From contig JBEKXN010000004.1 in assembly GCA_049511835.1 (NCBI GenBank), positions 81,231-145,230 on the forward strand: 64,000 nucleotides of DNA, read 5' to 3'. Below are positions 12,846 to 24,668 of the stretch, piece by piece. The stretch comes from Verrucomicrobiota bacterium. Lineage in GTDB: Bacteria; Verrucomicrobiota; Verrucomicrobiia; Limisphaerales; UBA11358. The translations under genes were made by a program, and so were the position numbers. A model generated the notes under the pieces. It saw only the letters and a program-made list of their open reading frames with translations, did not search any database and had not been told where the DNA came from. Numbering within the stretch: the first letter of the stretch is position 1; every line of letters begins with the position of its first letter.

Positions 12846-15530
12846 TCACGTTGTTTGCGGGATTTCAGCATGGTCTTCGGCCAGACGTTTGAGGACGCTT
12901 ACGCGGCCGCGGTTTCCATCCACCTGCACCAGGTCGCCCGTGTGAATGACCCGCGTGGCCGAAGCCACGTTGGTCACCGCCGGAAGACCGTATTCGCGCG
13001 CGACGATGCTGCCGTGCGAGAGAATCCCGCCTTGTTCCATGACCACGCCGGCGGCAGTGATGAAATACGGCGACCACGCCGGATCGGTGAACGGGGCGAT
13101 GAGAATTTCGCCGGGGAGAACCTGCTGGTGCTCATCCGTGCGCAAAATCACGCGGGCGGGGCCGGTGACAATGCCGGGAGAAACCGGAATGCCTTCCAGA
13201 AGTTTCGCGCCGACGTTCGCCACCGGCCAGCCGGGCGCGTTTGGATCGAATCTTCCGATCACAACCGGCGGCGGGGTGAGCTTCAGGTTCTTTTCGTATT
13301 CCCGCCGGCGCAATTCGATGCGTTCGCGCCAATCGAACGAAGCGCTGCCCATCGCGACCGGTTCAATCTCGGAAATTTCCAGGAAGAAAATGTCATCGCG
13401 GCCGGACAAGCTGCCCTGCTCGTGGAGCCGCTGGCCGAGGGCCAGGAGAACGCGGCGCACGAAGGCAATCCGCCGGACGCCGAGGTTCTTCAAATGCTCC
13501 CGGAAGACGGCCAGTTCCTGCGCGCGGCGCAGCGAGCGCGAGAATATCCAGCGTTTGATTGGATTCTTCAGCCGCGCGCGGCATTGGACGGTCAAGCGTT
13601 CCCGTTCGTCCGCCAGCCGCCGTTGATTTTCCAGCGGGTTGGACTGGCCCAGCGAGCGAAGATAGCCGCGCACCAACCCCAGGATATAATCGGGGGTCTC
13701 GCTCCAACGGGCGTTGGACAGCTCCAGTTCGCCGCGGCAATGATGTCCGTGCTCGGCCATGAAGGCATCCCAGACGGCCAGGAATTTCCGGCCGTGTTCG
13801 GTGCAGCCAAGCCTGGCGCGGACCTCCGGCCAATTGTTTTCGGAAGACACAACGCCCTCTGTGTCGCTGTCGGCGTGGGCAAGTGCCGCCAGTCGCCAAA
13901 GAGCCAGGCCAGCTTCCGCGACCGGCAGGCCGCCCAACGCGGCAAACAAGCGCAGCGACACGCCGGGTTCGCCCAGCCAATTGCGGCAAACTTTCTGAAA
14001 CACCGGAAGCACCCCCGCCTGCACCGCCAGGTAGAGAACATCCGCGTCCTTGAAAACTTCCCGTACGTACTGACCGCAAAGCCGGGTCAGCTCCGGCGTG
14101 GACAGGGCTTCGAGGTCCAGGCGGTCGAGTTCGTCCGTTTGTTTCTTAAAGCGGGCCAGCCAGGCCCAGCCACGCCGGCGGGACGAGTGGGTGATGAGGT
14201 CGTAAGCGATGCGGGGCCAGGAGAGGATGTATTTCGGCCAGCGGAAACCCAGATCCGGAAGATCCTCCGGCGGGATGGACAACGGGGTCTGGTGGTAGGA
14301 CTCCACCAGGTCGCCTCCCAGTGTTCGGGTAAATTCAGGAAACCCCTTCCGCAGGAAAGCGAATGGTTTGACGGCGGCCACAAACGTGTTGGCGTTGAAG
14401 TAGAGCCGGCCGGCGACAAGATCCCCGACCAGCGAAACGCGCCGGATATCCGCGCCCACCAGACGAAAGATGGAACCGACCACCGTCAGCAAGGATTGCA
14501 GCATGGACCACGTCATCGGCGTCACCACGTCCGGCATCGCTTCACCCGTGTTGACGTTGGTCCAGATTTGCCGGTCCTCCCATGTTTTGACCGGAGCTTT
14601 GGTTGTGATCGGACGGGACTGCAACAGGAACAGTTTGCCATCCCACTGCGCCCACTCGATGTCCTGCGGCGAACCAAAGAGGCGTTCGGTCTGACGAGCC
14701 AGGTCGCACAGGTTTTTGAGAGTTGCGGACGAAAGCAACTCATTTTCGGGCGAAGCCAGCACGCGCCCCGTTCGCTTTTCAACCACCATCCGTTCGGGCT
14801 GAACTGTTCCCTGCACCAGTCCTTCGCCCAAACCGCTCACGCACTCCACGACGAACCGGTCCGTTGCTCCCGTCAGCGGATCGGCGGTGAACGCGACTCC
14901 GGCGTGGCCGGCCTCCACCATTTCCTGCACCACCACTGCCATCCTGGCCTTCTCCGCCGGCACCCGCTGCTTCGCCAGGTAAACGAGCGCCCGCTCGGAG
15001 AAAAGCGACAGCCAGCACGTCTTGATGGCAGCCAACAACGCGTCCTCTCCGCGCACATTCAGAATGGATTCAAACTGACCGGCAAAAGACATTCCGGCTG
15101 CGTCCTCGACGGTCGCGCTGGAACGCACGGCAAAGCTCCGTTCTTCACCCAGTTCCCGCCACGCGGACAGCACTGCATCCTTCACCATTTCCGGCACGGG
15201 AACCTCCGCCAGACAGAAGCGGACTTCCCGGCTCAGTTCAGCAATTTGCCCAAGTTCCTTGCCGGAACATTGCGCCAGCAGATGGGATAAATCAGTGCGC
15301 CTCGGACACGAAGCCAGGAAGAGATCGAACGCCGTCGTCGTGACACAAAAACCGCACGGCACCGGCTGACCCGCCGCGATCAATTTGCCCAGGTTAAACG
15401 CCTTGCCGCCCACCAGCGACCGGTGGTTGTCGCCAGTTTCCGCCAAGCGAAGCACGAACACAGCGGTTTTGTCTGTTGCCGCCAGCACCGCCATGCTCCC
15501 CTCAGAATGGGTTGAAGATATCTTTTTCAT
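12846..15530 (-). CDS. PEP-utilising phosphotransferase, three-domain PpsA/rifampicin-phosphotransferase-like architecture
   Basis: N-terminal ATP-grasp motif GGKAFNLGKLIAAGQPVPCGFCVTT. Long central domain. C-terminal swivel-His domain ...GGILSHGSIVAREYGLPAV. The start MKKISS at 15530 overlaps the upstream stop (ATGA). Confidence 0.75.
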   Translation of the reverse strand: MKKISSTHSEGSMAVLAATDKTAVFVLRLAETGDNHRSLVGGKAFNLGKLIAAGQPVPCGFCVTTTAFDLFLASCPRRTDLSHLLAQCSGKELGQIAELSREVRFCLAEVPVPEMVKDAVLSAWRELGEERSFAVRSSATVEDAAGMSFAGQFESILNVRGEDALLAAIKTCWLSLFSERALVYLAKQRVPAEKARMAVVVQEMVEAGHAGVAFTADPLTGATDRFVVECVSGLGEGLVQGTVQPERMVVEKRTGRVLASPENELLSSATLKNLCDLARQTERLFGSPQDIEWAQWDGKLFLLQSRPITTKAPVKTWEDRQIWTNVNTGEAMPDVVTPMTWSMLQSLLTVVGSIFRLVGADIRRVSLVGDLVAGRLYFNANTFVAAVKPFAFLRKGFPEFTRTLGGDLVESYHQTPLSIPPEDLPDLGFRWPKYILSWPRIAYDLITHSSRRRGWAWLARFKKQTDELDRLDLEALSTPELTRLCGQYVREVFKDADVLYLAVQAGVLPVFQKVCRNWLGEPGVSLRLFAALGGLPVAEAGLALWRLAALAHADSDTEGVVSSENNWPEVRARLGCTEHGRKFLAVWDAFMAEHGHHCRGELELSNARWSETPDYILGLVRGYLRSLGQSNPLENQRRLADERERLTVQCRARLKNPIKRWIFSRSLRRAQELAVFREHLKNLGVRRIAFVRRVLLALGQRLHEQGSLSGRDDIFFLEISEIEPVAMGSASFDWRERIELRRREYEKNLKLTPPPVVIGRFDPNAPGWPVANVGAKLLEGIPVSPGIVTGPARVILRTDEHQQVLPGEILIAPFTDPAWSPYFITAAGVVMEQGGILSHGSIVAREYGLPAVTNVASATRVIHTGDLVQVDGNRGRVSVLKRLAEDHAEIPQTT

Positions 15531-17695
15531 TTCACGGGCTGGAAGTCTTTGTGGCCCGTCTGCCACAGGAGGAATGCGTACTGGTCCGCGAAATTCTTGA
15601 AGGTGACAACCTTCTCCTCCGTGAAGTGGCCGTTGTCGTAGTTCACCTTCATCAGGACGGGCTTTCCCGAGGCCGTTGCCGCCTGCAAGGCAGCCACGAA
15701 CTTGCCAGGTTGCCAGGCTGGGCATCGGGGATCGTTCCAGCCACCCACACCCATAACCGCAGGGTAATTTACACCCTTCTGGACGTGCTGGACTCCGTCC
15801 ATCTCGAACAGAGCCTGGCACTCAACGGGATCTTTCACTGTGCCAAATTCCGGCGTGTCGCCCGCACCAAAGGGCCGGAACTCATGACGCATCGCATTCG
15901 CGACCCCGACATTGCAAACTGCGGCAGCAAATAAATCCGGGCGTTCCGTGATAGCACGGCAGATCAGGATTCCGCCAGCACTGGTGCCAGTAACTGCGAG
16001 CTTCCGGGGACTGGTATATCCCTTTTTCACAAGGTACTCCGCGCAGGAAATGAAGTCCTTCCATGTGTTCGGTTTGGTAGTCTTGTAGCCGGCTTTGTAC
16101 CAAGCCCCGCCCTTTTCGCCGCCGCCCCTTACGTGCGCAAAAGCAAACACCACACCTCGGGCTGCCAGTAAGTTAACGCGAATGTTGAAGTAGGGGGTAT
16201 AACTAAACCCGTAAGCGCCATAGCCAGTAAGGATGCAGCTGTTTGACCCATCCAACGGAATACCCTTCTTGTAAATGATGGAGAGCGGAATCATTGTGCC
16301 ATCGTGCCCGGGCACTTCAACTTCTTTGGAGACTAGGTTCTCGAAGCCTGGATACGACATGTCCGTGTTGAAAATGCTCTTCGCGAAGGTGTCCTTCTGC
16401 GCATCAAAATCATAGATCGTCAGGGGTGAAGTCCAGGAGGTGATATACACCAGACAACGATCCGTTTTCCAATCCGGACAACTGACGTCCACGGTCCCGG
16501 ACGCCGGAAGTTTGATTTCTGCGATCTTGCCGGTGGTTAGGTCGTATTTGATGAGACGGCCTACAATCCCATCTGAATAAACGACGAGGAGATAGTGCTT
16601 GCTCTTGGTAATGGATTGGATGGAGTCAGCCCCCTCGGGAATCACGGTCTCGGCGTGTTCCCAGTCAGGGTGCTTCACGCTCGTCCGAACAACCTTATAC
16701 TTTGGCGCACCTGCATGGGTGACGGCGTAAACGTAATCCCCGTAGAATTCAAACCCTCGATATTCAGACCCTCGATACACCAGATTATCTGAGGGTTTAC
16801 ACAGGACATCCCATTTGATTTTCTTGTGCTTCAGTTCGGAGGTGGGAGCATAGAAAATCCGCATCTCCCACTGCGAGGTCTCCACTCTCCCGATGATGTA
16901 GTCAGGGTAGGATTCATCAATGAAAGCAACGGGCCTCTCCTTTGCCGTGATCCCCAGTTCAGGGTTGCTCTCATCGCTGAAGATATCTCTGTCCATGGCA
17001 GTTTCGGTGCCAAGTTTATGCACTTTGGTTTTGCGGTTCAGTAGGACATCGGGGCTCTTGATGTCAGCGACCTTGCCGAAGTCATAGAAAAACGACTTGC
17101 TGTCCTTCGTCCACCCCAAGGCTGCAAAGGAGGGATAAATACGTTCGGGCAACAGCGTTCCCCGTTCCACGTCCAAAACACGGATTTCTGAATACTCAGC
17201 GCCACCCGAGGAAAACCCCATGGCGACGTATTTCCCGTCCCACGAGGGGAGGAAGGAATGGATGGTTGTTGTCACACCAGCCTTGTATGTAGCTGGATCG
17301 AAGAGCAGTTTTTCAGCACCATCCCATCCCTCGCGGAAGTAGAGCTTGCCCACGTTTTCGCCACCCAAAGTCTTCTTGTAAAAGACCCGGCCATTTTCAC
17401 ACATGATTGTCGAGTAAACCACAGGTTCGAGCTTGTCCAACGCCATCCATTCCTTCGCGAGGGCATCCCTGCCGGGAATCTTCGCCAGCAGGTCGTCGGT
17501 CAATTCCGCCTGAGCCTTGAACCAGGCTTCGACCTCCTTGTCTTTTAGGTCCTCCAACCAGCGGTAAGGATCGTTGTAAGTCTTCCCAAAGTAGGTGTCG
17601 GATGCATCGACGGTTTTTGTCGGCGGATAGTTCCACTGGGCAAAGCATGGCATGGCAGCCAAGACTGGGAGGACGAGGAAAAGAAATCTTTTCAT
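15527..17695 (-). CDS. prolyl oligopeptidase (S9A), secreted
   Basis: Signal peptide MKRFLFLVLPVLAAMPCFA. YFGKTYNDPYRWLED. GTSAGGIL is the GxSxG nucleophile motif. Confidence 0.85.
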   Translation of the reverse strand: MKRFLFLVLPVLAAMPCFAQWNYPPTKTVDASDTYFGKTYNDPYRWLEDLKDKEVEAWFKAQAELTDDLLAKIPGRDALAKEWMALDKLEPVVYSTIMCENGRVFYKKTLGGENVGKLYFREGWDGAEKLLFDPATYKAGVTTTIHSFLPSWDGKYVAMGFSSGGAEYSEIRVLDVERGTLLPERIYPSFAALGWTKDSKSFFYDFGKVADIKSPDVLLNRKTKVHKLGTETAMDRDIFSDESNPELGITAKERPVAFIDESYPDYIIGRVETSQWEMRIFYAPTSELKHKKIKWDVLCKPSDNLVYRGSEYRGFEFYGDYVYAVTHAGAPKYKVVRTSVKHPDWEHAETVIPEGADSIQSITKSKHYLLVVYSDGIVGRLIKYDLTTGKIAEIKLPASGTVDVSCPDWKTDRCLVYITSWTSPLTIYDFDAQKDTFAKSIFNTDMSYPGFENLVSKEVEVPGHDGTMIPLSIIYKKGIPLDGSNSCILTGYGAYGFSYTPYFNIRVNLLAARGVVFAFAHVRGGGEKGGAWYKAGYKTTKPNTWKDFISCAEYLVKKGYTSPRKLAVTGTSAGGILICRAITERPDLFAAAVCNVGVANAMRHEFRPFGAGDTPEFGTVKDPVECQALFEMDGVQHVQKGVNYPAVMGVGGWNDPRCPAWQPGKFVAALQAATASGKPVLMKVNYDNGHFTEEKVVTFKNFADQYAFLLWQTGHKDFQPVK

Positions 17696-17811
17696 AATGG
17701 GAAGCTCCAATGAATTATTGATCGGAATGTGCTTTTAATGTTCCGCGAACATGGGTGATTCGGTCTGGTTAACAGGAAGGTAAAACAAATGATGCGGATG
17801 GTAGTTTTCAT
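17692..17811 (-). pseudogene. 39-codon remnant of a fourth hydrolase paralogue (signal-peptide stub), bridging two cistrons
   Basis: MKTTIRIICFTFLL matches the paralogue N-termini MKTAIRAICFTLLL and MTTAIRVLCFMILL, then diverges. ATGA overlaps at both ends. Confidence 0.5.
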
Positions 17812-19583
17812 TTTAGTTTCTTTCCCTCGTGATTTAACCCCGTAATACTGCGGACTACCGCCGTCACTTCTCCCTGGCCATTCTTGATGAAGGTGTATCG
17901 CATGTGATTGATCTTGCAGAAAAAGTTCGTTTCCGATTCGGGATACATATCGAAGGCGCCCTCGAGAACGTTCTCGCCCCAGGCTTGCCCGAACAACTGG
18001 TCTCCCTGCCGCCAGATCGTCAGTTTGATTCCCGTGGGATACGCGGCGTCCGGCGCGACTTCGTAATGGCCGACACAGGCGTCAAGAAGTTTTGGGGCCA
18101 GCTTGATGGCAACAGGCCGTTTCAGCGGTTCGGGGGCTTTGGGCGGCTGATCGGAGATTTTCTCATAATAAAACTCTCTGCCCTGGAAGTGCACGGTTAA
18201 GCCGGTCACCTTGCCTCGTGTATCCCGGGAAAAGGTCATGGGTATGCCGCTCAACCTTTCAAAAAAACGATTTTCCGATTCCGGCAATAATTCGATGGTG
18301 AGAGGCGGTAATAATACATCAACCGGCCACGATCTTGATCCTGTGGCCTGGGCGAAGAGCCGGTCCCCTTCACGGCAAATACCGATGCCGGATGGGATCA
18401 TATTACTCGACACGAGCGCAACATCAGGTGGACGCTGGTATTGTCCGAGATACGAACCATAAACTTTGTTGCTGATTTTGGTTTCCTTGGGCCGATGGTC
18501 CGACTGCCATTCGCTTTCGAGTAACAAGAGGCCCAAGCCGTAAACGACATCCCAATCTTCCGTGTTAGCCAAGACCACCACGCCGCGCCGCCGGGCCTTG
18601 TCGAAACCGATGAACGTGCGAAAACCGCCCGTACCTCCGGTTTTCCAGATGATTTGTGTCCCATGCAGGTCGGAAATATACCAAGCCAACCCAATGTCAG
18701 TGTCCGGCTCTAAACGAAAGTGCGCGACCTGTGTTTTTTCCATGAGCGGTGTCAGAGTGGATGGCGTCAGGCCGAGGTTGGCAGACACGTATTTGAGCTG
18801 GTCATGGGCCGTCGAGCACAGCGCACCACAGCCCGCCAAGACCCCAAATTCCATAACCGGGACCGCGTAGTTGAGTTCAGAGTGTCCCTGTGCAAACCGC
18901 GCTTTCATTCCGGGCGTCAAAGTGATCCGCGTGCTGTCCATCTTTAGTGGCCGGCAAATCCGATCCACCACGAGCGACTCGTAGTTCGTCCCGGCTTTCA
19001 GCGCAATGACATGACCGAGCAATCCCATTCCTAGGTTGGAATATTGATATTTCGCGCCCGGATCACGGGTCAATCTGTAGCCGGACAGGAAGGCATACAA
19101 CTTTTCGACGGAATAATCAGCATAGGGGCTATCCGCGCTTTTGGTGTCAACGTTGTCAGGATTGTCTGGCAGCCCGGAGGTGTGCGTCGCCAGTTGAAGC
19201 AAGGTGATTTCCTTGCCGTTGCGGGTTGGCATCCTGACCGACTTGGGCAAATACCTGGCCACGGGATCATCCAGCTTCATCTCCCCGCGCTCAATCATGT
19301 CTTGCAGCAACAGCGCGGTAAATGTCTTCGTGACCGAACCGATCTCAAACACGGTACTGCCATTCACTGCCTGATCGGTCCCGTTATCCAGTTTTCCGCA
19401 ACTGACAATGCTGCTGCCATGCTCGTCCACAATGCCGACCACTATGCCGACGTCACGCTTTTCAAGCTCGACGCGCTGTTGCAGGTAAGCGTGGATGGCA
19501 TTGGTGAAATCCTCCGCCGCAGCACGGAATGAAGATGCCGATAACAATATCATGAAACAAAGGACTCGGATGGCAGTGGTCAT
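17808..19583 (-). CDS. beta-lactamase-fold serine hydrolase (class C/EstB-like) with two C-terminal DUF3471-like modules
   Basis: Signal peptide. The SVTK (SxxK), YSN and KTG motifs are all present. C-terminal module LDACVGHYEVAP...LTIWRQGDQLFGQ...PESETNFF...GEVTAVV. Confidence 0.8.
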   Translation of the reverse strand: MTTAIRVLCFMILLSASSFRAAAEDFTNAIHAYLQQRVELEKRDVGIVVGIVDEHGSSIVSCGKLDNGTDQAVNGSTVFEIGSVTKTFTALLLQDMIERGEMKLDDPVARYLPKSVRMPTRNGKEITLLQLATHTSGLPDNPDNVDTKSADSPYADYSVEKLYAFLSGYRLTRDPGAKYQYSNLGMGLLGHVIALKAGTNYESLVVDRICRPLKMDSTRITLTPGMKARFAQGHSELNYAVPVMEFGVLAGCGALCSTAHDQLKYVSANLGLTPSTLTPLMEKTQVAHFRLEPDTDIGLAWYISDLHGTQIIWKTGGTGGFRTFIGFDKARRRGVVVLANTEDWDVVYGLGLLLLESEWQSDHRPKETKISNKVYGSYLGQYQRPPDVALVSSNMIPSGIGICREGDRLFAQATGSRSWPVDVLLPPLTIELLPESENRFFERLSGIPMTFSRDTRGKVTGLTVHFQGREFYYEKISDQPPKAPEPLKRPVAIKLAPKLLDACVGHYEVAPDAAYPTGIKLTIWRQGDQLFGQAWGENVLEGAFDMYPESETNFFCKINHMRYTFIKNGQGEVTAVVRSITGLNHEGKKLK

Positions 19584-20791
19584 TTTAGTTTCTTTCCCTC
19601 GCTATCCGGAACCCCCGCTTGAGAGGAATGGTGGATGACAGCCGTCACTTCTCCCTTGTCATTCTTGATGAAGGTCAATTGCGCGCCATCGATTTTGAGG
19701 AAGAAATTCGTTTCCGATTCGGGATAAATATGAAACGCACCTTTGAGGGTGTTCTCGCCCCAGACTTGTCCGACCAACTGATCTCCTTCCCGCCAGATCG
19801 TCACCTTCCCTACAGTGGGAGACATGGCGTTCGGCGCAAATTCGTAGTGCCCGACACAGGCATCAAGAAGTTTTGCGTCCAGCTTGATGGCAACATGCGA
19901 TTTGGCTGGTGCAGAATCCGGGACGCTGGCACTGGCCGGGAGTGGCACTTTCGGTTCTTTGCCCAGATAGCCGATGCGGCACAGAAACTCATCAACCTCC
20001 TCCGTTGTTATTCCCAGCCAGGGCGGCTGATTGAAGAAGCCGTGCGATTCCCCTTCTGTGAAGCAGGCCTCGACCGGTGCGCCCAGGGATTTGCTCTTCT
20101 GGACAAACTCGCGGATCTCATAGTTAAACTGATCTTCCGTGCCATCGATGAACAATGTGGGAGGCGCTTTTTTGCAGACATGAAAGAAAGGGGAAATCCG
20201 CTTCAGCATCGCGTCGTCCATGCCGGTGAGGGGGTTGTCGGCACCACCGCCGCGCAACGCGATCAGGTTCAGGTCGGGGTTGTAGAGAACCATCGCATTG
20301 GGCTTGGGAGAGACGGATTTGTCGTCGTCCGGAGCGTTGATCCCCTCGGCGAAAAAGGTGCAGGCCGCGAGATGCCCCCCTGCCGAACCGCCCGAAGCCA
20401 CGATACGGTTGGGATCGATGCCGAGCTGGGCAGCATGGCTGCGGACCCAGCGCATGGCGCTGATGGCGTCTTCGACGCATTTGTCGAGCTTGACGCCGTC
20501 CTTGGCGTGGGTACGGCGATCGGCACGGGCACAGACCAAGCCACGCTTGGCGAAGTATTCGGCCTGAGGCTTGAACTGGTCAAGCGTGCCGCCTCCACCA
20601 GAAAAGAAAACAATGGCCGGGTGCTTATCGGCTGGCTTCCAGTCGGGCGGGTAGTCGAGGTCGAGCGTCAGCTTCCGTTCGCCGACGGTCTTATAGACAT
20701 ATTGCGCCTGTGGTTTGGCCTCCGCCGAAGCGCGAAAGGAAAACGCCGATAACAGTATCGTGAAACAAATTACTCGGACGGCAGTGGTCAT
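19580..20791 (-). CDS. alpha/beta-hydrolase (esterase/lipase-type) fused to one DUF3471-like module
   Basis: The signal peptide resembles those of the neighbours. IVFFSGGGG oxyanion region and GGSAGGHLA nucleophile elbow. The C-terminal module resembles those of the flanking genes. Confidence 0.75.
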   Translation of the reverse strand: MTTAVRVICFTILLSAFSFRASAEAKPQAQYVYKTVGERKLTLDLDYPPDWKPADKHPAIVFFSGGGGTLDQFKPQAEYFAKRGLVCARADRRTHAKDGVKLDKCVEDAISAMRWVRSHAAQLGIDPNRIVASGGSAGGHLAACTFFAEGINAPDDDKSVSPKPNAMVLYNPDLNLIALRGGGADNPLTGMDDAMLKRISPFFHVCKKAPPTLFIDGTEDQFNYEIREFVQKSKSLGAPVEACFTEGESHGFFNQPPWLGITTEEVDEFLCRIGYLGKEPKVPLPASASVPDSAPAKSHVAIKLDAKLLDACVGHYEFAPNAMSPTVGKVTIWREGDQLVGQVWGENTLKGAFHIYPESETNFFLKIDGAQLTFIKNDKGEVTAVIHHSSQAGVPDSEGKKLK

Positions 20792-22758
20792 TTTAGTTTC
20801 TTTCCCTCGAGATCTGGAAACCCCGCTCCATGGTCGATCGCCGCCGTCACTTCTCCTTCTTTATTCTTGATGAAGATGAATTGCTCATCAGCGATTTTGA
20901 GGAAGAAATTCGTTTCCGATTCGGGATAAATATCGAAAGCGCCTTGGCCGACGTTCTTGCCCCAGCATTGCGAGACCAACTGATCTTCTTCCCGCCGGAT
21001 CGTCAGTTTCATTCCAGTGGGAAACATGGCGTTCGGCGCAAATTCGTAGTGGCCGACGACGGCATCAAGAAGTTTTGTGTCCAGCTTGATGAGGACGGGA
21101 CGTTTCGGTGGTTCGGGAGCTTTTGGTGGTTCATCGGAGATTTTCTCGTAAAAAAACACCTTCTCGCGGTAGTGCAGCGTCAAGCCGGTCACCTTGCCCC
21201 GGGCATCCCGGGAAAAGGTCATGGGCACGCCGCTCAACCTTTCAAAGAGACAGTTTTCCGATTCCGGCAACAATTCCGCCTGGACAAGCGGAAATAATAC
21301 ATCAATCGGATTTGATTGTGATCCCCACGCTTGCAAGAACCTCCAATCCTCAATCGGACATAAGTTCAATCCTGTGGCTTGGGCGAAGAGCCGATCCCCT
21401 TCGCGGTGAATGCCGATGCCGGGCTGAAAACGCGCGCAAAATACACGACTCGACACTAGAGCAAGGAGCGGGGCCAAAAGACCACAGACCAGGACCACGC
21501 AACCCAAGATGACCCATCGCTTGCGGAAACTGCCAGCACGCCAGAGGAGGATCACCAGCGCCGCGAGGCAGAAAGCCGCCGGGAGAAAGATGGCCGTTTT
21601 GGGAGCGTTGCGGAGATACTGCCGCATAACGAACATTCCCAGTGTAAAATCAGGTGACCGTCGGTATTGTCCTACATACGAACCGTAAACCTGACTGTTA
21701 ATGTTGGTCTTCGTTGGCCGTCGGTCCGATTGCCATTCGCTTTCAAGTAGAAGATTGCCCAACTCGCGCCCTGAATCGTCCGCAGTGGACAAGATTACCA
21801 CGCCGCGACGCCGCGTCTTGTCGAAACAGGCATACGATCTGCCGCCGAACCCCCCTCCGCCGGTATGGATCATTCCCTCTATCTCCGGAGCATAACTGAG
21901 GTTAGTCATGCTTTTTTCCATGAGCGGTGTCAGACCTGACGGAGTCAGGCCGAGGGCCGACACGAATTTCAGCAGGTCATTGGCTGTTGAGTGCAGCCCG
22001 GCAAAGGGTTTCATAGCTCCCCAATCCCAACTCGGTCTCGCATAGCCGAACTCATTGTGTTCGCTGGCGAGCCGAGATTTCAGTTCGCCAGTCAGAGTGA
22101 ACCGGGCGCTATCCATCTTCAATGGCCGGAAAATCCGGTCCACCATGAGAGATTCGAAATCCGTCCCGGCTTTCAGCGCCATGGCCTGGCTCAGCAATCC
22201 CAGGTCCACGCCGCCATGATAATGCTTCGTTCCCGGGTCATTGGTCAATTGGCAGCCGGACACGAAGGCATACATTTTCTCGACGGTAAAATCAGCAAAG
22301 GGATTATCCGCGCGTTTAGGGTCAAGTTTGCCAATTAAGTTTGGAAGCCCGGAGGTTTCCTTCACCAGGTGGCGCAAGGTGATTTCCTTGCCATGGTAGG
22401 TCGGCATTTTGACAGACTTGGGCAAATAGCCGGCCACGGGATCATCCAGCTTCATTTCTCCACGCTCAACCATGTCTAGCAGCAACAAGTGGGTAAATGT
22501 GCCTGTCGCGGAATGAACATTGAACAGTGTGTCGCCATTCGCTTCCCGGTCGGTGCCATTATCCAATTTCCCAAAACTGACAATGCTGCTGCCATGCTCG
22601 TCCACAATGCCGACCACGATGCAGCCGTTTATCTTTTCAGCCTCGACGCGCTGTTGCAGATACGCGTGGATGGCATTGGTGAAATCCTCCGCCGCAGCGC
22701 GAAAGGGAAACGCCGATAACAACAGCGTGAAACAAATGGCTCGGATGGCAGTTTTCAT
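20788..22758 (-). CDS. beta-lactamase-fold paralogue with degenerate catalytic motifs and an internal two-helix membrane insertion
   Basis: Collinear with 17808..19583, but SVTK becomes SATG, YSN becomes HGG and KTG becomes HTG. An extra hydrophobic segment, TAIFLPAAFCLAALVILLW...WVILGCVVLVCGLLAPLLALV, is present. Confidence 0.7.
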   Translation of the reverse strand: MKTAIRAICFTLLLSAFPFRAAAEDFTNAIHAYLQQRVEAEKINGCIVVGIVDEHGSSIVSFGKLDNGTDREANGDTLFNVHSATGTFTHLLLLDMVERGEMKLDDPVAGYLPKSVKMPTYHGKEITLRHLVKETSGLPNLIGKLDPKRADNPFADFTVEKMYAFVSGCQLTNDPGTKHYHGGVDLGLLSQAMALKAGTDFESLMVDRIFRPLKMDSARFTLTGELKSRLASEHNEFGYARPSWDWGAMKPFAGLHSTANDLLKFVSALGLTPSGLTPLMEKSMTNLSYAPEIEGMIHTGGGGFGGRSYACFDKTRRRGVVILSTADDSGRELGNLLLESEWQSDRRPTKTNINSQVYGSYVGQYRRSPDFTLGMFVMRQYLRNAPKTAIFLPAAFCLAALVILLWRAGSFRKRWVILGCVVLVCGLLAPLLALVSSRVFCARFQPGIGIHREGDRLFAQATGLNLCPIEDWRFLQAWGSQSNPIDVLFPLVQAELLPESENCLFERLSGVPMTFSRDARGKVTGLTLHYREKVFFYEKISDEPPKAPEPPKRPVLIKLDTKLLDAVVGHYEFAPNAMFPTGMKLTIRREEDQLVSQCWGKNVGQGAFDIYPESETNFFLKIADEQFIFIKNKEGEVTAAIDHGAGFPDLEGKKLK

Positions 22759-24668
22759 TTCAGTTTCTTTTCCTCGATTTCCTCCTTGGGTAGAGGGCCG
22801 GACAGCGTGACGCTCTGACCGATGGCCGGAATTTTGAAGGGTTGGTAGGGCTGGTAGCCTCGCGTTTGCCAGTCGAACCGGAGCCAGTGGAAATCGGGCG
22901 AATCCAGCGAGGTGTCGAACCGGAATGCAACGCGGGACGGCAAATCCGATGCATCCGATTCCAGGACTTCCACCGTGAGGCCGTCGAGGTCATACCGGTC
23001 GCCTTTTTTGCATCTGGGTCCGCCCACGAGCAGGTTTAAAGTCCTGCAGGCGTAGGCGCTATGGATCGGACCAACATTGTCGCAGAAGAATATGTCCGGC
23101 GCTTTGGATTGAATCACCAGCGTTTTGTCATCGGTCCGCTGGACGTCGAAGCTCGTGCCAGCCGGTACCAGCGCCCGCAAGGTCTTGGGCAGCGGCTGGT
23201 GGTGATACGCTTTGTAAGCAGGTGCATGAACCAACGCGAGCGGCAAGGCGTTGATAATGATCACATTTTCGTTCTCGATGTTTGGCCAATCACCGAGATC
23301 ACTGAGTAAGCACATCCGGTTGAAAAGGAGAGGGGCAACTTTAACTACTGCGACTCTTCCGGCGGCCGCTCCCGGAACATGCGCCAGAATCAGCAGCACG
23401 CAGGCAATCCATGCCGGGATTCGGTAGGCCAACGCTTTCGGCAACCGACTCGGCCGGGTGATCAGGCCGGCGACAAAACTGGCGATCAATCCATAAGCTC
23501 CGACGGCCACAAAGCCAAGGTTCTTGCTGACTGGCACTACCGTGGACGCAGGGATGGCCGCCAGCACCATGATCGCGAACCAGAACGCGGCCGTTTTGTC
23601 CCGGCGCACCCACGGGAGGAAAACCACCAAAGCCGCGACCACGGTCACGCAAAAAAGCGCCGCGACCCTCTGCCGCAATAGAGGATTGAGTGCGCACAAA
23701 ACATCCGGCGCCACGCCGGTAAGTTGGCCGCCAAGCAGAACCATCGCCCGGGGAATCAACACCCGCCCAAACTCAAGCGGATCGTTGGCAGGGTCAGTGT
23801 AAAGGCCCATCTGAAACACACCAAAGCCGGAAAGTGTATAGATGGTCCGCCACAGAACGATCACCAGAATCGCAGGCAAAATCGTCAGCGCCCGGTGGCG
23901 AAGAGAACCCGGCTCGCGCACCAGCGCATACGCGAAGATGAAGGCCAACGTGGAAGCTCCGCCTTCATCCGTGAGAAGCGAAAGCGCGAGGAACACGGCG
24001 GACAACACCAATCCGGAACGGGACTTTGCGGAACGCCATTGATGATGTTCATAAAGACACAGCAGGCCGAAGAATAATGATAGCATGAAGCCGCGGTTTG
24101 CGACGAACGCCACCGGGAAGTAGGTGTTGACATCGAGCAGGAACAACAGCGCCGCGAATCCCGCGACCCATCCCGCTCCCATCAGCTTCCGGTAAACAAT
24201 CGTGATGAGAAACACGATGGCCGCGAACCAGGCGATGTTGTGGGCGTGCATCAGCATGGGCGAGTCGGGAAAAAGCCGGTAATCAAGCCAGTGGGTGAAG
24301 GCGGCGAGCGGCCGCCAAAGGGCAAATCTGAAATTGTCCGGCGTCCACCACGGCAGCGTGCCGTAACTTTTCATCAACGCCATGCATTGCGGATCTCGGC
24401 TGAAGCCGAAAAGGTCGCAGAGCACGGTCCCGAGACTGCCGGAATCCGCAGGGTTGCCCGTCTCGTGCATTCGCGGCGGCAATTGGCTGGGCTTGAGTTC
24501 GACGGCCCGCTGCATCAGATCGTCCACCGCCAAGTCGATCTTCAAGGCGGGCAACATGACCAGTATCGCCCCAATTGCCAGAATCGCTGGAAGGTGGCGA
24601 TGCTCAAGAAGTTTTTTCAAGAACCCCAGCATCTTGGCTCCTATTCCATTCGTTTTCATCGTTTCCAT
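22755..24668 (-). CDS. polytopic inner-membrane protein with C-terminal soluble domain (possible GT-C/ArnT-PMT-like glycosyltransferase)
   Basis: More than 10 hydrophobic helices. An acidic DD pair lies in the first loop (KIDLAVDDLMQ). A soluble tail of roughly 200 aa follows. The family assignment is tentative. Confidence 0.35.
   Translation of the reverse strand: METMKTNGIGAKMLGFLKKLLEHRHLPAILAIGAILVMLPALKIDLAVDDLMQRAVELKPSQLPPRMHETGNPADSGSLGTVLCDLFGFSRDPQCMALMKSYGTLPWWTPDNFRFALWRPLAAFTHWLDYRLFPDSPMLMHAHNIAWFAAIVFLITIVYRKLMGAGWVAGFAALLFLLDVNTYFPVAFVANRGFMLSLFFGLLCLYEHHQWRSAKSRSGLVLSAVFLALSLLTDEGGASTLAFIFAYALVREPGSLRHRALTILPAILVIVLWRTIYTLSGFGVFQMGLYTDPANDPLEFGRVLIPRAMVLLGGQLTGVAPDVLCALNPLLRQRVAALFCVTVVAALVVFLPWVRRDKTAAFWFAIMVLAAIPASTVVPVSKNLGFVAVGAYGLIASFVAGLITRPSRLPKALAYRIPAWIACVLLILAHVPGAAAGRVAVVKVAPLLFNRMCLLSDLGDWPNIENENVIIINALPLALVHAPAYKAYHHQPLPKTLRALVPAGTSFDVQRTDDKTLVIQSKAPDIFFCDNVGPIHSAYACRTLNLLVGGPRCKKGDRYDLDGLTVEVLESDASDLPSRVAFRFDTSLDSPDFHWLRFDWQTRGYQPYQPFKIPAIGQSVTLSGPLPKEEIEEKKLK

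Follow-up and report, generated by a model that had tools for sequence, protein, structure and literature searches.

Can a protein of the penicillin-binding fold that has lost the canonical catalytic motifs still be an enzyme, and what would hold it at the membrane? The question is raised by a gene of a Verrucomicrobiota bacterium (assembly GCA_049511835.1, contig JBEKXN010000004.1), found in a stretch of 64,000 nucleotides (positions 81,231 to 145,230 of the contig), which is referred to below as the window. In the list of open reading frames of the window, the gene occupies 20788..22758 of the minus strand (to which all window coordinates given below also refer), starts with an ATG at 22758 and encodes 656 amino acids plus the stop codon. 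Its product, labelled psi in this work, had been described in an earlier note on this DNA as a beta-lactamase-fold pseudoenzyme with an inserted membrane hairpin and a retained non-catalytic role, for instance as a binding or scaffold subunit. Ser-Lys-Tyr chemistry is treated as defining for the superfamily of penicillin-binding proteins and serine beta-lactamases, one of the most studied folds. The interpretation favoured here is that psi is a functional protein of a family found in this work mainly in Verrucomicrobiota from soil and peat, whose members either lack the canonical motifs (the N class, to which psi belongs) or are catalytic (the C class).

The active site of psi and its relatives

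By fold, psi is assigned to the S12/class C superfamily, yet none of the three superfamily motifs reads as expected in its sequence. The Pfam matches of psi are Beta-lactamase (E=6e-42) and DUF3471 (E=5e-10), the former (PF00144) scoring 144 bits over residues 33-330 against a cut-off of 27 bits; among the NCBIfam models, those of AmpH and of class C beta-lactamase score best, each far under its cut-off. The AlphaFold2 model, obtained from an alignment of 113 sequences, shows a predicted local distance difference test (pLDDT) of 91.6 and a predicted template modelling score (pTM) of 0.87, and keeps the five-stranded core sheet, with the nucleophile Ser at the start of helix 2. Foldseek matched this model to AmpC, AmpH-like 3ozh, an FmtA-like protein, DAP, ClbP (full-length), IS11 and Pab87, with a probability of 1.0 for AmpC, the AmpH-like protein, DAP and ClbP. 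The beta-lactamase-fold domain, predicted to be periplasmic, comprises residues 25-345 (21724..22686), as indicated by PF00144, by Foldseek and by the within-class selection described below.

The earlier note had proposed that psi is collinear with a paralogue of 591 amino acids encoded at 17808..19583, whose SVTK, YSN and KTG motifs are intact, and that both proteins share a signal peptide. Both points hold, as the two sequences are collinear and 64% identical, with five differences in their first 23 residues, and AEDFTNAIHAYLQQRVE is identical in the two. Residue equivalences were established through HMMER alignments to solved structures (AmpH-like 3ozh and AmpC), by which Ser83, Gly86, Glu134, His181 and Gly183 of psi correspond to Ser64, Lys67, Tyr112, Tyr150 and Asn152 of AmpC. 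In motif 1 (canonical SxxK), SVTK of the paralogue becomes SATG in psi (residues 83-86; 22501..22512), so that the Ser is kept and the Lys is gone. In motif 2, KYQYSN becomes KHYHGG (residues 178-183), where H181-G-G183 (22210..22218) takes the place of the canonical Y-S-N, with His for Tyr150, and neither Y-x-N nor Y-x-x can be read. Both replacements had been seen in the earlier note, and the structural alignments fix their positions. Glu134 (22357..22359), within KETSG, stands where the catalytic relatives show His (THTSG), at the Tyr112 position when aligned to ATYTAGG of AmpC. In the case of motif 3 (K/H-T/S/G-G), the box of strand beta-3 reads H299-T-G-G302 (21853..21864) at the place of the canonical (W/H)-K-T-G, where Thr300 is the equivalent of Lys315 and His299 lies opposite the residue that precedes KTG, which is Trp in the paralogue and His314 in AmpC. 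The change from KTG to HTG suggested by the note is therefore one residue out of register, the gap-free alignments giving T300-G301-G302; a shift of one residue would read HTG, which makes this assignment slightly less certain than the others, but the Lys is lost either way. An HTG motif 3 is present in the R61 DD-peptidase.

These replacements are class-specific in a family alignment of 122 sequences, made of psi, the window paralogue and the 120 closest database homologues, which come from soil and peat metagenomes and are labelled Verrucomicrobiota or Thermoguttaceae. At E<=1e-10, the homologue search counted about 760 family members. Position 134 is Glu in 84/84 sequences of the N class and His in 37/37 of the C class, where it forms part of the widespread L.THTSGL motif, and position 181 is His in 84/84 and Tyr in 37/37, respectively. 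Ser83 is invariant in both classes, and position 86 is G, C, Y, V or S in the N class and Lys in the C class; position 183 is variable in the former and mostly Asn in the latter, and position 300 is T, F or S in the former and Lys or His in the latter. In other words, the equivalents of Lys86, Asn183 and Lys300 vary in the N class, and Ser83, Glu134 and His181 are fixed. The segment preceding strand beta-3 is also about 16 residues shorter across the N class (24 vs 40 residues), a deletion that presumably removes the counterpart of the GLGWE-type hairpin found in class C enzymes.

Searching again for homologues, now with a divergent domain of the N class as the query (only 50 matches, among which the parent protein of the query was not listed), added about 20 N-class sequences, all with Ser, Glu and His at the three fixed positions. 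Among the pooled distinct sequences, 101 read S/not-K/E/H at positions 83, 86, 134 and 181, and 146 retain the Lys of motif 1; of the latter, 141 have the canonical Ser and Tyr, position 134 being occupied by H, Q, Y, V or A, and five are oddities. No intermediates between the two types occur among these 101 and 146 sequences, and the loss of the Lys is always paired, in all 101 cases, with the change of the Tyr150 equivalent to His and of the His at the Tyr112 position to Glu. The observation is not due to chance, since 101 distinct homologues show these motif changes and 90 of the 120 closest ones have the hairpin described below. The alignment with class C structures, which the note had recommended, finds the canonical residues truly replaced and not merely shifted, so that the Lys/Tyr/Lys machinery is gone, as the note had claimed. 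Read across the family, the active site of psi appears to have been switched, not eroded.

Selective constraint

At the DNA level, comparison of psi with its two closest homologues analyzed in this way gives ratios of non-synonymous to synonymous substitution rates (dN/dS) of 0.37 and 0.21, or 0.33 and 0.165 when restricted to the beta-lactamase domain. Over this domain, pairs within the N class show values of 0.165-0.35 and pairs within the C class of 0.33-0.39, whereas pairs between classes, taken at low dS, show 0.45-0.60, a pattern which indicates a functional shift followed by constraint, and not decay. The hairpin is under a similar regime, with values of 0.27-0.30. Recent gene conversion was also considered as the source of the signal peptide and C-terminus common to the paralogues and found no support, since dS in these regions (0.23-0.38) lies under that of the core but not near zero.

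These values bear on the possibility that psi is a decaying duplicate or an incipient pseudogene, or that its insert is an artefact of assembly or annotation, which is the least probable of the readings considered. It is true that the catalytic motifs are lost, that the accessory block harbouring the gene also holds a relic gene stub, and that dN/dS against the active paralogue, whose estimation the earlier note had recommended, is raised to about 0.5. However, decay is already contradicted by a frame of 656 codons that is intact, as is its ATGA coupling at both ends, in agreement with the note. Moreover, the same substitutions occur in the 101 distinct homologues, all of them intact, with no disabled copy or disabling mutation among them, and the hairpin is present in most of the closest relatives; dN/dS against same-class homologues is 0.17-0.37, hairpin included, and the AlphaFold2 model is confident over its full length.

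A predicted membrane hairpin in the first barrel module

The two hydrophobic helices that the note had placed within the first barrel module are indeed found there, as part of a segment of 74 amino acids (residues 371-444; 21427..21648) on which hydropathy, the Hessa scale and AlphaFold2 agree. The segment consists of an amphipathic helix (371-383), a first transmembrane (TM) helix, a short basic loop and a second TM helix, and its boundaries are set by hairpin-less relatives, which fuse ...SPD straight to QPGIGI.... Predicted TM helix 1 covers residues 387-407 (21538..21600), the same limits as the helix in the AlphaFold2 model, and predicted TM helix 2 covers residues 415-435 (21454..21516) within a modelled helix (411-444) that runs on to residue 444. 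Kyte-Doolittle means over 19 residues peak at 388-406 (2.43) and 416-434 (2.85), and the Hessa sums of -1.43 and -2.03 (-1.4 and -2.0 kcal/mol) are the two lowest in psi. Between both helices lies a predicted cytoplasmic turn, R407-AGSF-R412-K413-R414 (21517..21540), with four positive charges in eight residues. In the model, the hairpin helices follow strand 1 (363-367) of barrel module 1 and precede its strand 2 (447-453). Since the number of spans is even, all globular parts would stay in the periplasm, and a loop of the first barrel is predicted to fasten psi, as a periplasmic protein, to the inner membrane. The W-R-A-x-S-x-R-K-R motif of the turn is conserved in both the N and C classes, a conservation of basic residues that fits the expectation for a cytoplasmic loop.

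The insertion is not peculiar to psi, as had been implied, but a trait of the family. It occurs in 91 of the 122 aligned sequences, comprising 58/85 non-catalytic and 33/37 catalytic members, and in these 58 and 33 sequences the hairpin is conserved in sequence, beyond its hydrophobicity, with the consensus ...ALGMF..RQYLL.APKAAIYIPAGFCLAVL.VLLWRA.S.RKR.IILG..VL..GLLA.L..LV.S...CA...PGIGIRREGD. The hairpin-bearing module is rare, as only 120 out of 1.84 billion cluster representatives matched it at E<=1e-3; of these, ten with several domains were scanned, all of which carry a beta-lactamase domain and most of which are gene fragments, and the idea of the hairpin as a portable anchor on other enzymes found no case among these ten. 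Neither was the hairpin found in about 70 beta-lactamase plus DUF3471 genes outside the family, taken from representative genomes of Acidobacteriota, Gemmatimonadota, Alphaproteobacteria and other groups, most of which encode a single barrel. Two catalytic members from outside the window (P0085 and P0107), of about 1,000 amino acids, represent the one variation encountered, with a glycoside hydrolase family 10 (GH10) xylanase domain that comes after the beta-lactamase domain and the TM hairpin and before DUF3471; they are predicted to be membrane-tethered bifunctional enzymes, which hints at hemicellulose-related substrates for the family.

With regard to its origin, a neighbour-joining tree places the window paralogue, which lacks the hairpin, among hairpin-bearing members of the C class, and a scar is visible at the position of the end of the second helix (VALVSSNMI, vs LALVSSRVF in psi), so that the paralogue most likely lost its hairpin. 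At least four distinct deletion junctions exist among the hairpin-less members, and the simplest reading of these sequences would be an older hairpin, shared by the family and lost repeatedly.

A membrane-spanning segment of unusually conserved sequence, together with the Ser kept in a penicillin-binding fold, would also be expected in a TM sensor similar to BlaR1/MecR1, in which acylation or ligand binding in the periplasm would be relayed through the hairpin into the cytoplasm. Such a role is highly improbable, as the cytoplasmic part is a turn of eight residues, with no output domain, and no regulator or kinase gene is conserved beside the family members in the loci inspected.

Catalysis or binding

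The reading to which we tentatively incline, with somewhat less than even confidence, is that psi is a membrane-tethered serine hydrolase with a rewired Ser-His-Glu site. The Sec signal peptide would export the N-terminal S12-fold domain to the periplasm, followed by two eight-stranded barrel modules of the DUF3471 type, in the first of which the loop between strands 1 and 2 would be replaced by the amphipathic helix and the two-helix TM hairpin. The hairpin would dip into the inner membrane and back, leaving its R/K-rich turn in the cytoplasm and the globular parts tethered near the membrane surface on the periplasmic side. In the active site, the Lys67/Tyr150/Lys315 acid-base system would have given way to the fixed Ser83, His181 (at the Tyr150 site) and Glu134 (at the Tyr112 site), with His181 acting as the general base for Ser83, Glu134 orienting His181, and the backbone oxyanion hole being kept. 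The substrate would be some ester or amide at the membrane surface. In simulations of AmpC, the neutral Lys67 hydrogen-bonds Tyr112, which packs against Tyr150 (PMC12235585), and because these equivalent residues touch, positions 83, 134 and 181 of psi are expected to be neighbours. The loss of the Lys side chain should make room for them. The wider proposal, that the N subfamily represents a natural re-invention of the Ser-His-Glu triad within the penicillin-binding/class C fold, tethered by a hairpin, is possible but held with more doubt. Architecture, conservation, coupled substitutions, purifying selection and the accessory-island context are what the data show, and the membrane topology, the geometry of the triad and catalysis of any kind are deduced from them.

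Several points weigh against a rewired and tethered hydrolase. No natural Ser-His-Glu site in the S12 fold was found in the searchable literature, and we know of none. Both His and Glu are shorter than the tyrosines that they replace, and a ligand or a metal could just as well be what the conserved Ser, His and Glu bind; His179 is frequent too, which results in an HxH pattern, and Glu134 might simply be paired with Arg129, another N-class-specific residue. As for the membrane part, the TM prediction was made with the Kyte-Doolittle and Hessa scales and AlphaFold2. It is likewise uncertain whether the hairpin was gained or lost, given a crude neighbour-joining tree and a sample biased towards the query, and it is further clouded by a short loop (AAPR.F.LWPFS.H) that is identical in both classes and suggests, from sequence, that the paralogues may exchange modules. 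Finally, MipB exemplifies a beta-lactamase fold that bears two C-terminal barrels and works without catalysis (PMC10936184). A metal site formed by His179-x-His181 and Glu134 was examined and judged less likely, His179 not being invariant (Y, F, R or N in some members).

Nearly as probable as the hydrolase is a non-catalytic, membrane-tethered ligand-binding pseudoenzyme similar to MipB, whose cleft would hold a peptide, an acylated glycan or a lipid-linked compound through Ser83, His181 and Glu134 without turnover, so that psi would serve, on the periplasmic side of the inner membrane, as a receptor, chaperone or presenter. None of the three canonical acid/base residues is left, the purifying selection is as compatible with binding as with catalysis, and N-class genes often adjoin real hydrolases, as in the window and in locus L085. 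A precedent exists in MipB, which has no SXXK, degenerate YXN and KTG motifs and two eight-stranded barrels, is attached to the membrane and binds MipA (PMC10936184). However, the nucleophile Ser, which together with the rest of the SXXK motif is missing from MipB, is invariant in the 101 sequences; the replacements are not relaxed but consist of a fixed and coupled His and Glu pair, as in catalytic triads, and the domain is as constrained as in the catalytic paralogues. It is because of the invariant Ser and of this fixed, coupled pair that we lean slightly to catalysis. The retained role that the earlier note had argued for agrees with the purifying selection, whereas its term pseudoenzyme is not established, in view of the invariant Ser and of a Lys loss coupled to His181 and Glu134.

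Genomic context

The gene of psi is the second of four genes linked by ATGA overlaps, which encode a polytopic membrane protein of 637 amino acids (24668..22755), psi, an alpha/beta-hydrolase of 403 amino acids (20791..19580) and the 591-residue paralogue (19583..17808). The overlap at 22755..22758 joins the stop codon of the membrane protein to the start of psi, and that at 20788..20791 the stop of psi to the start of the hydrolase. Comparison by blastn indicates that psi lies in an accessory block of 7.26 kb (15531..22792), which contains psi, the esterase with DUF3471, the catalytic paralogue, a stub of 39 codons and a prolyl oligopeptidase. Two related loci, L091 and L087, align with the window along the membrane-protein gene down to 22793 and along a PPDK_N-type gene from 15530; in the relatives (86-92% nucleotide identity) these flanking genes are 24 bp apart, vs 7,262 bp in the window (22792..15531). 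The membrane protein of close relatives ends in ...LSGPHR* and is followed by the PPDK_N/phosphoenolpyruvate (PEP)-utilizer gene. In the window, a junction of the form gagg(g/a)aa(a)gaaact(a/g)aaATGA(a/c)(a/c)ACTGCCATCCGAG, repeated at each gene boundary, gives the membrane protein a foreign tail of 12 residues (LPKEEIEEKKLK) that replaces the usual ...HR end. That psi is coupled to the membrane protein follows from the site at which the block landed, and is therefore not evidence of partnership. The membrane protein itself was rejected as a partner, as none of its homologues occurs near any of the 82 family loci, and it is a conserved protein simply adjoining the insertion.

The earlier note had suggested that psi could be a scaffold for the neighbouring hydrolases, that is, an anchor subunit holding the esterase (19580..20791) and the catalytic paralogue (17808..19583) at the membrane. 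The four genes are coupled, all three paralogous products end in a DUF3471 module, and L085 harbours a similar trio, in which a soluble N-type member, an N-type member with the hairpin and an alpha/beta hydrolase are joined by 4-nt overlaps. The idea does not agree with other loci: the N-type genes P0003, P0006 and P0048 are found alone in unrelated neighbourhoods, and no conserved neighbourhood was detected for the N-class genes of L001, L002, L083, L085 and L086. Moreover, most catalytic members (33/37) own a hairpin and need no separate anchor, and the block is a strain-specific insertion of 7.3 kb, another strain having a catalytic, hairpin-bearing member as the first gene at the same site. 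A scaffold is accordingly an improbable role for psi. One catalytic member is located after a pectate-lyase-like gene, and the family seems to travel with secreted hydrolases, which hints at ester or glycan substrates, with an AmpH-like peptidase activity being equally possible. P0003 is, with 78% identity, the second-closest homologue of psi, and some 2.5 kb downstream of it three consecutive open reading frames (L001, 14518-16523) correspond to fragments of a catalytic-type family gene (SITK/YST), which suggests a disrupted paralogue.

Other features of psi and neighbouring genes

The Sec-type signal peptide occupies residues 1-23 (MKTAIRAICFTLLLSAFPFRAAA|ED; 22690..22758), with a cleavage site that we assign by rule from the sequence. 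It has an n-region with K2 and R6, a hydrophobic core and an AxA motif (AAA|E), shows no lipobox, since it ends in FRAAA|ED and a Cys is absent at +1, and is nearly identical in both paralogues and in the family. Barrel module 1 starts at residues 352-370 (21649..21705), where the AlphaFold2 model has a short helix (355-360) and strand 1 (363-367), and it resumes after the hairpin at residues 447-541 (21136..21420), as delimited by the modelled strands. Its layout, with a short helix and strand 1 followed by a loop and strand 2, is that of module 2, to which it is only weakly similar in sequence, the comparison between both modules of the paralogue giving an i-Evalue of 3.4e-4, so that module 1 is no more than DUF3471-like. 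The second part of module 1 includes an extra helix of 16 residues (469-484), which is missing from the window paralogue and is found mainly in the N class among the aligned sequences. The C-terminal DUF3471 module 2 (residues 556-656; 20791..21093) ends in EGKKLK and matches PF11954 at residues 558-643 (E=5e-10; 40.1 bits, above the cut-off of 29.3 bits). The same type of module terminates the neighbouring alpha/beta-hydrolase and the catalytic paralogue.

This hydrolase (19580-20791) belongs to BD-FAE/Abhydrolase_3 and has weak similarity to PaeX and to acetylxylan esterases. That the same leader and the same DUF3471 tail occur on hydrolase and beta-lactamase-fold genes implies that unrelated catalytic domains have been shuffled between them. 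Conservation is unusually high in the leader and in the first helix (..AIRVICFTILLSAFPFRAAAEDFTNAIHAYLQ) among proteins from different genomes with an overall identity of only about 60%, both in the window (22690-22758, 20723-20791 and 19515-19583) and in L001, L003, L006, L085 and L086; the conserved leader, the conserved ...EGKKLK end and the ATGA junction suggest a cassette boundary prone to recombination or, alternatively, a specialised leader. The stub (17692-17811; 39 codons, MKTTIRIICFTFLLTRPNHPCSRNIKSTFRSIIHWSFPL) begins with a fourth copy of the junction and signal peptide; its ATG overlaps the stop codon of the catalytic paralogue (ATGA), and its TGA forms another ATGA with the start codon of the prolyl oligopeptidase at 17695. 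From its sequence, the stub appears to be what remains of a family gene that was lost, still bridging the translational coupling. This overlap places the start of the prolyl oligopeptidase at 17695 (MKRFLF...) and not at the TTG at 17710. In turn, the PPDK_N/PEP-utilizer gene (12846-15530; 894 amino acids) starts at 15530 and not at the GTG at 15821, with its ATG overlapping the stop of the prolyl oligopeptidase (ATGA), so that the coupling is unbroken from the GT-C-like gene through the block into the PPDK_N gene.

The upstream membrane protein (22755-24668; 637 amino acids) matches no Pfam family and has more than 100 homologues in Verrucomicrobiota with 67-90% identity, in which D49-D50 of the first periplasmic loop are invariant. 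Its AlphaFold2 model (pLDDT 78.9) was matched by Foldseek to the GT-C glycosyltransferases AftA, PglB, ArnT and STT3 with a probability of 1.0 and low template modelling scores. In another strain (L094, 2915-5066), the homologue of the membrane protein is followed by a catalytic member with the hairpin, which shows the same junction, starts with the same residues (MKTAIRAICFT) and has its frame broken by two compensating frameshifts; these may be errors of a long-read assembly or real decay.

Comparison with known systems

The N subfamily would be either a clean natural switch of mechanism within its fold or a well-defined new class of pseudoenzymes. The hairpin in a loop of a beta-barrel is an unusual anchor for a periplasmic enzyme, as conserved as the globular domains, and offers a way to approach what the uncharacterised DUF3471 modules do. 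There is also a practical side, because annotation and resistance-gene pipelines label these proteins as "serine hydrolase", "class C beta-lactamase family" or "DD-carboxypeptidase", labels that do not match the active site in about two thirds of the closest homologues. In the searchable literature, no description was found of a TM hairpin in a barrel loop or of the Ser/Glu/His signature, and searches for DUF3471 and for SxxK together with pseudoenzyme returned nothing. Neither feature is present in the closest systems, namely ClbP, DAP/Pab87/IS11 and MipB.

In the case of MipB from P. aeruginosa, a member of the polymyxin-sensing MipA-MipB pair, the likeness would comprise the beta-lactamase fold with degenerate motifs, two eight-stranded C-terminal barrels (modelled in psi) and membrane attachment in the envelope, although MipB is a lipoprotein with a lipobox, probably of the outer membrane, which lacks SXXK and whose gene adjoins that of its outer-membrane partner MipA (PMC10936184). 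In contrast, psi shows no lipobox, keeps the Ser and has the invariant His and Glu, and its neighbours are a GT-C-fold membrane protein and hydrolases. No MipA-like neighbour was found at psi, where no screen aimed at MipA/OmpV genes was made. As for ClbP, the colibactin-activating peptidase, it has a periplasmic S12 domain with a signal peptide and an anchor to the inner membrane through its own alpha-helices (PMC9889268), as proposed for psi, but its Ser/Lys/Tyr site is canonical, three C-terminal helices form its TM domain and barrel modules are absent. In psi the triad is gone, and the membrane part consists of two internal helices.

DAP (1ei5), Pab87/CubicO (2qmi) and the IS11 esterase (7spn) combine, like psi, an S12 domain with one or two small C-terminal barrel or lipocalin domains, and are its top Foldseek matches over the longest alignments; the database sources name members of the family "CubicO group peptidase". 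Unlike psi, these proteins are soluble, have canonical motifs and carry no membrane hairpin in a barrel. Lastly, psi shares with AmpC of E. coli and the AmpH-like 3ozh of Yersinia pestis (MEROPS S12, PF00144) the same fold, the periplasmic location and the signal peptide, but differs from them in the replacement of the equivalents of Lys67, Tyr150, Asn152 and Lys315, in the Glu at the Tyr112/His position, in a loop before strand beta-3 that is shorter by about 16 residues, and in the possession of two barrel modules and a TM hairpin.

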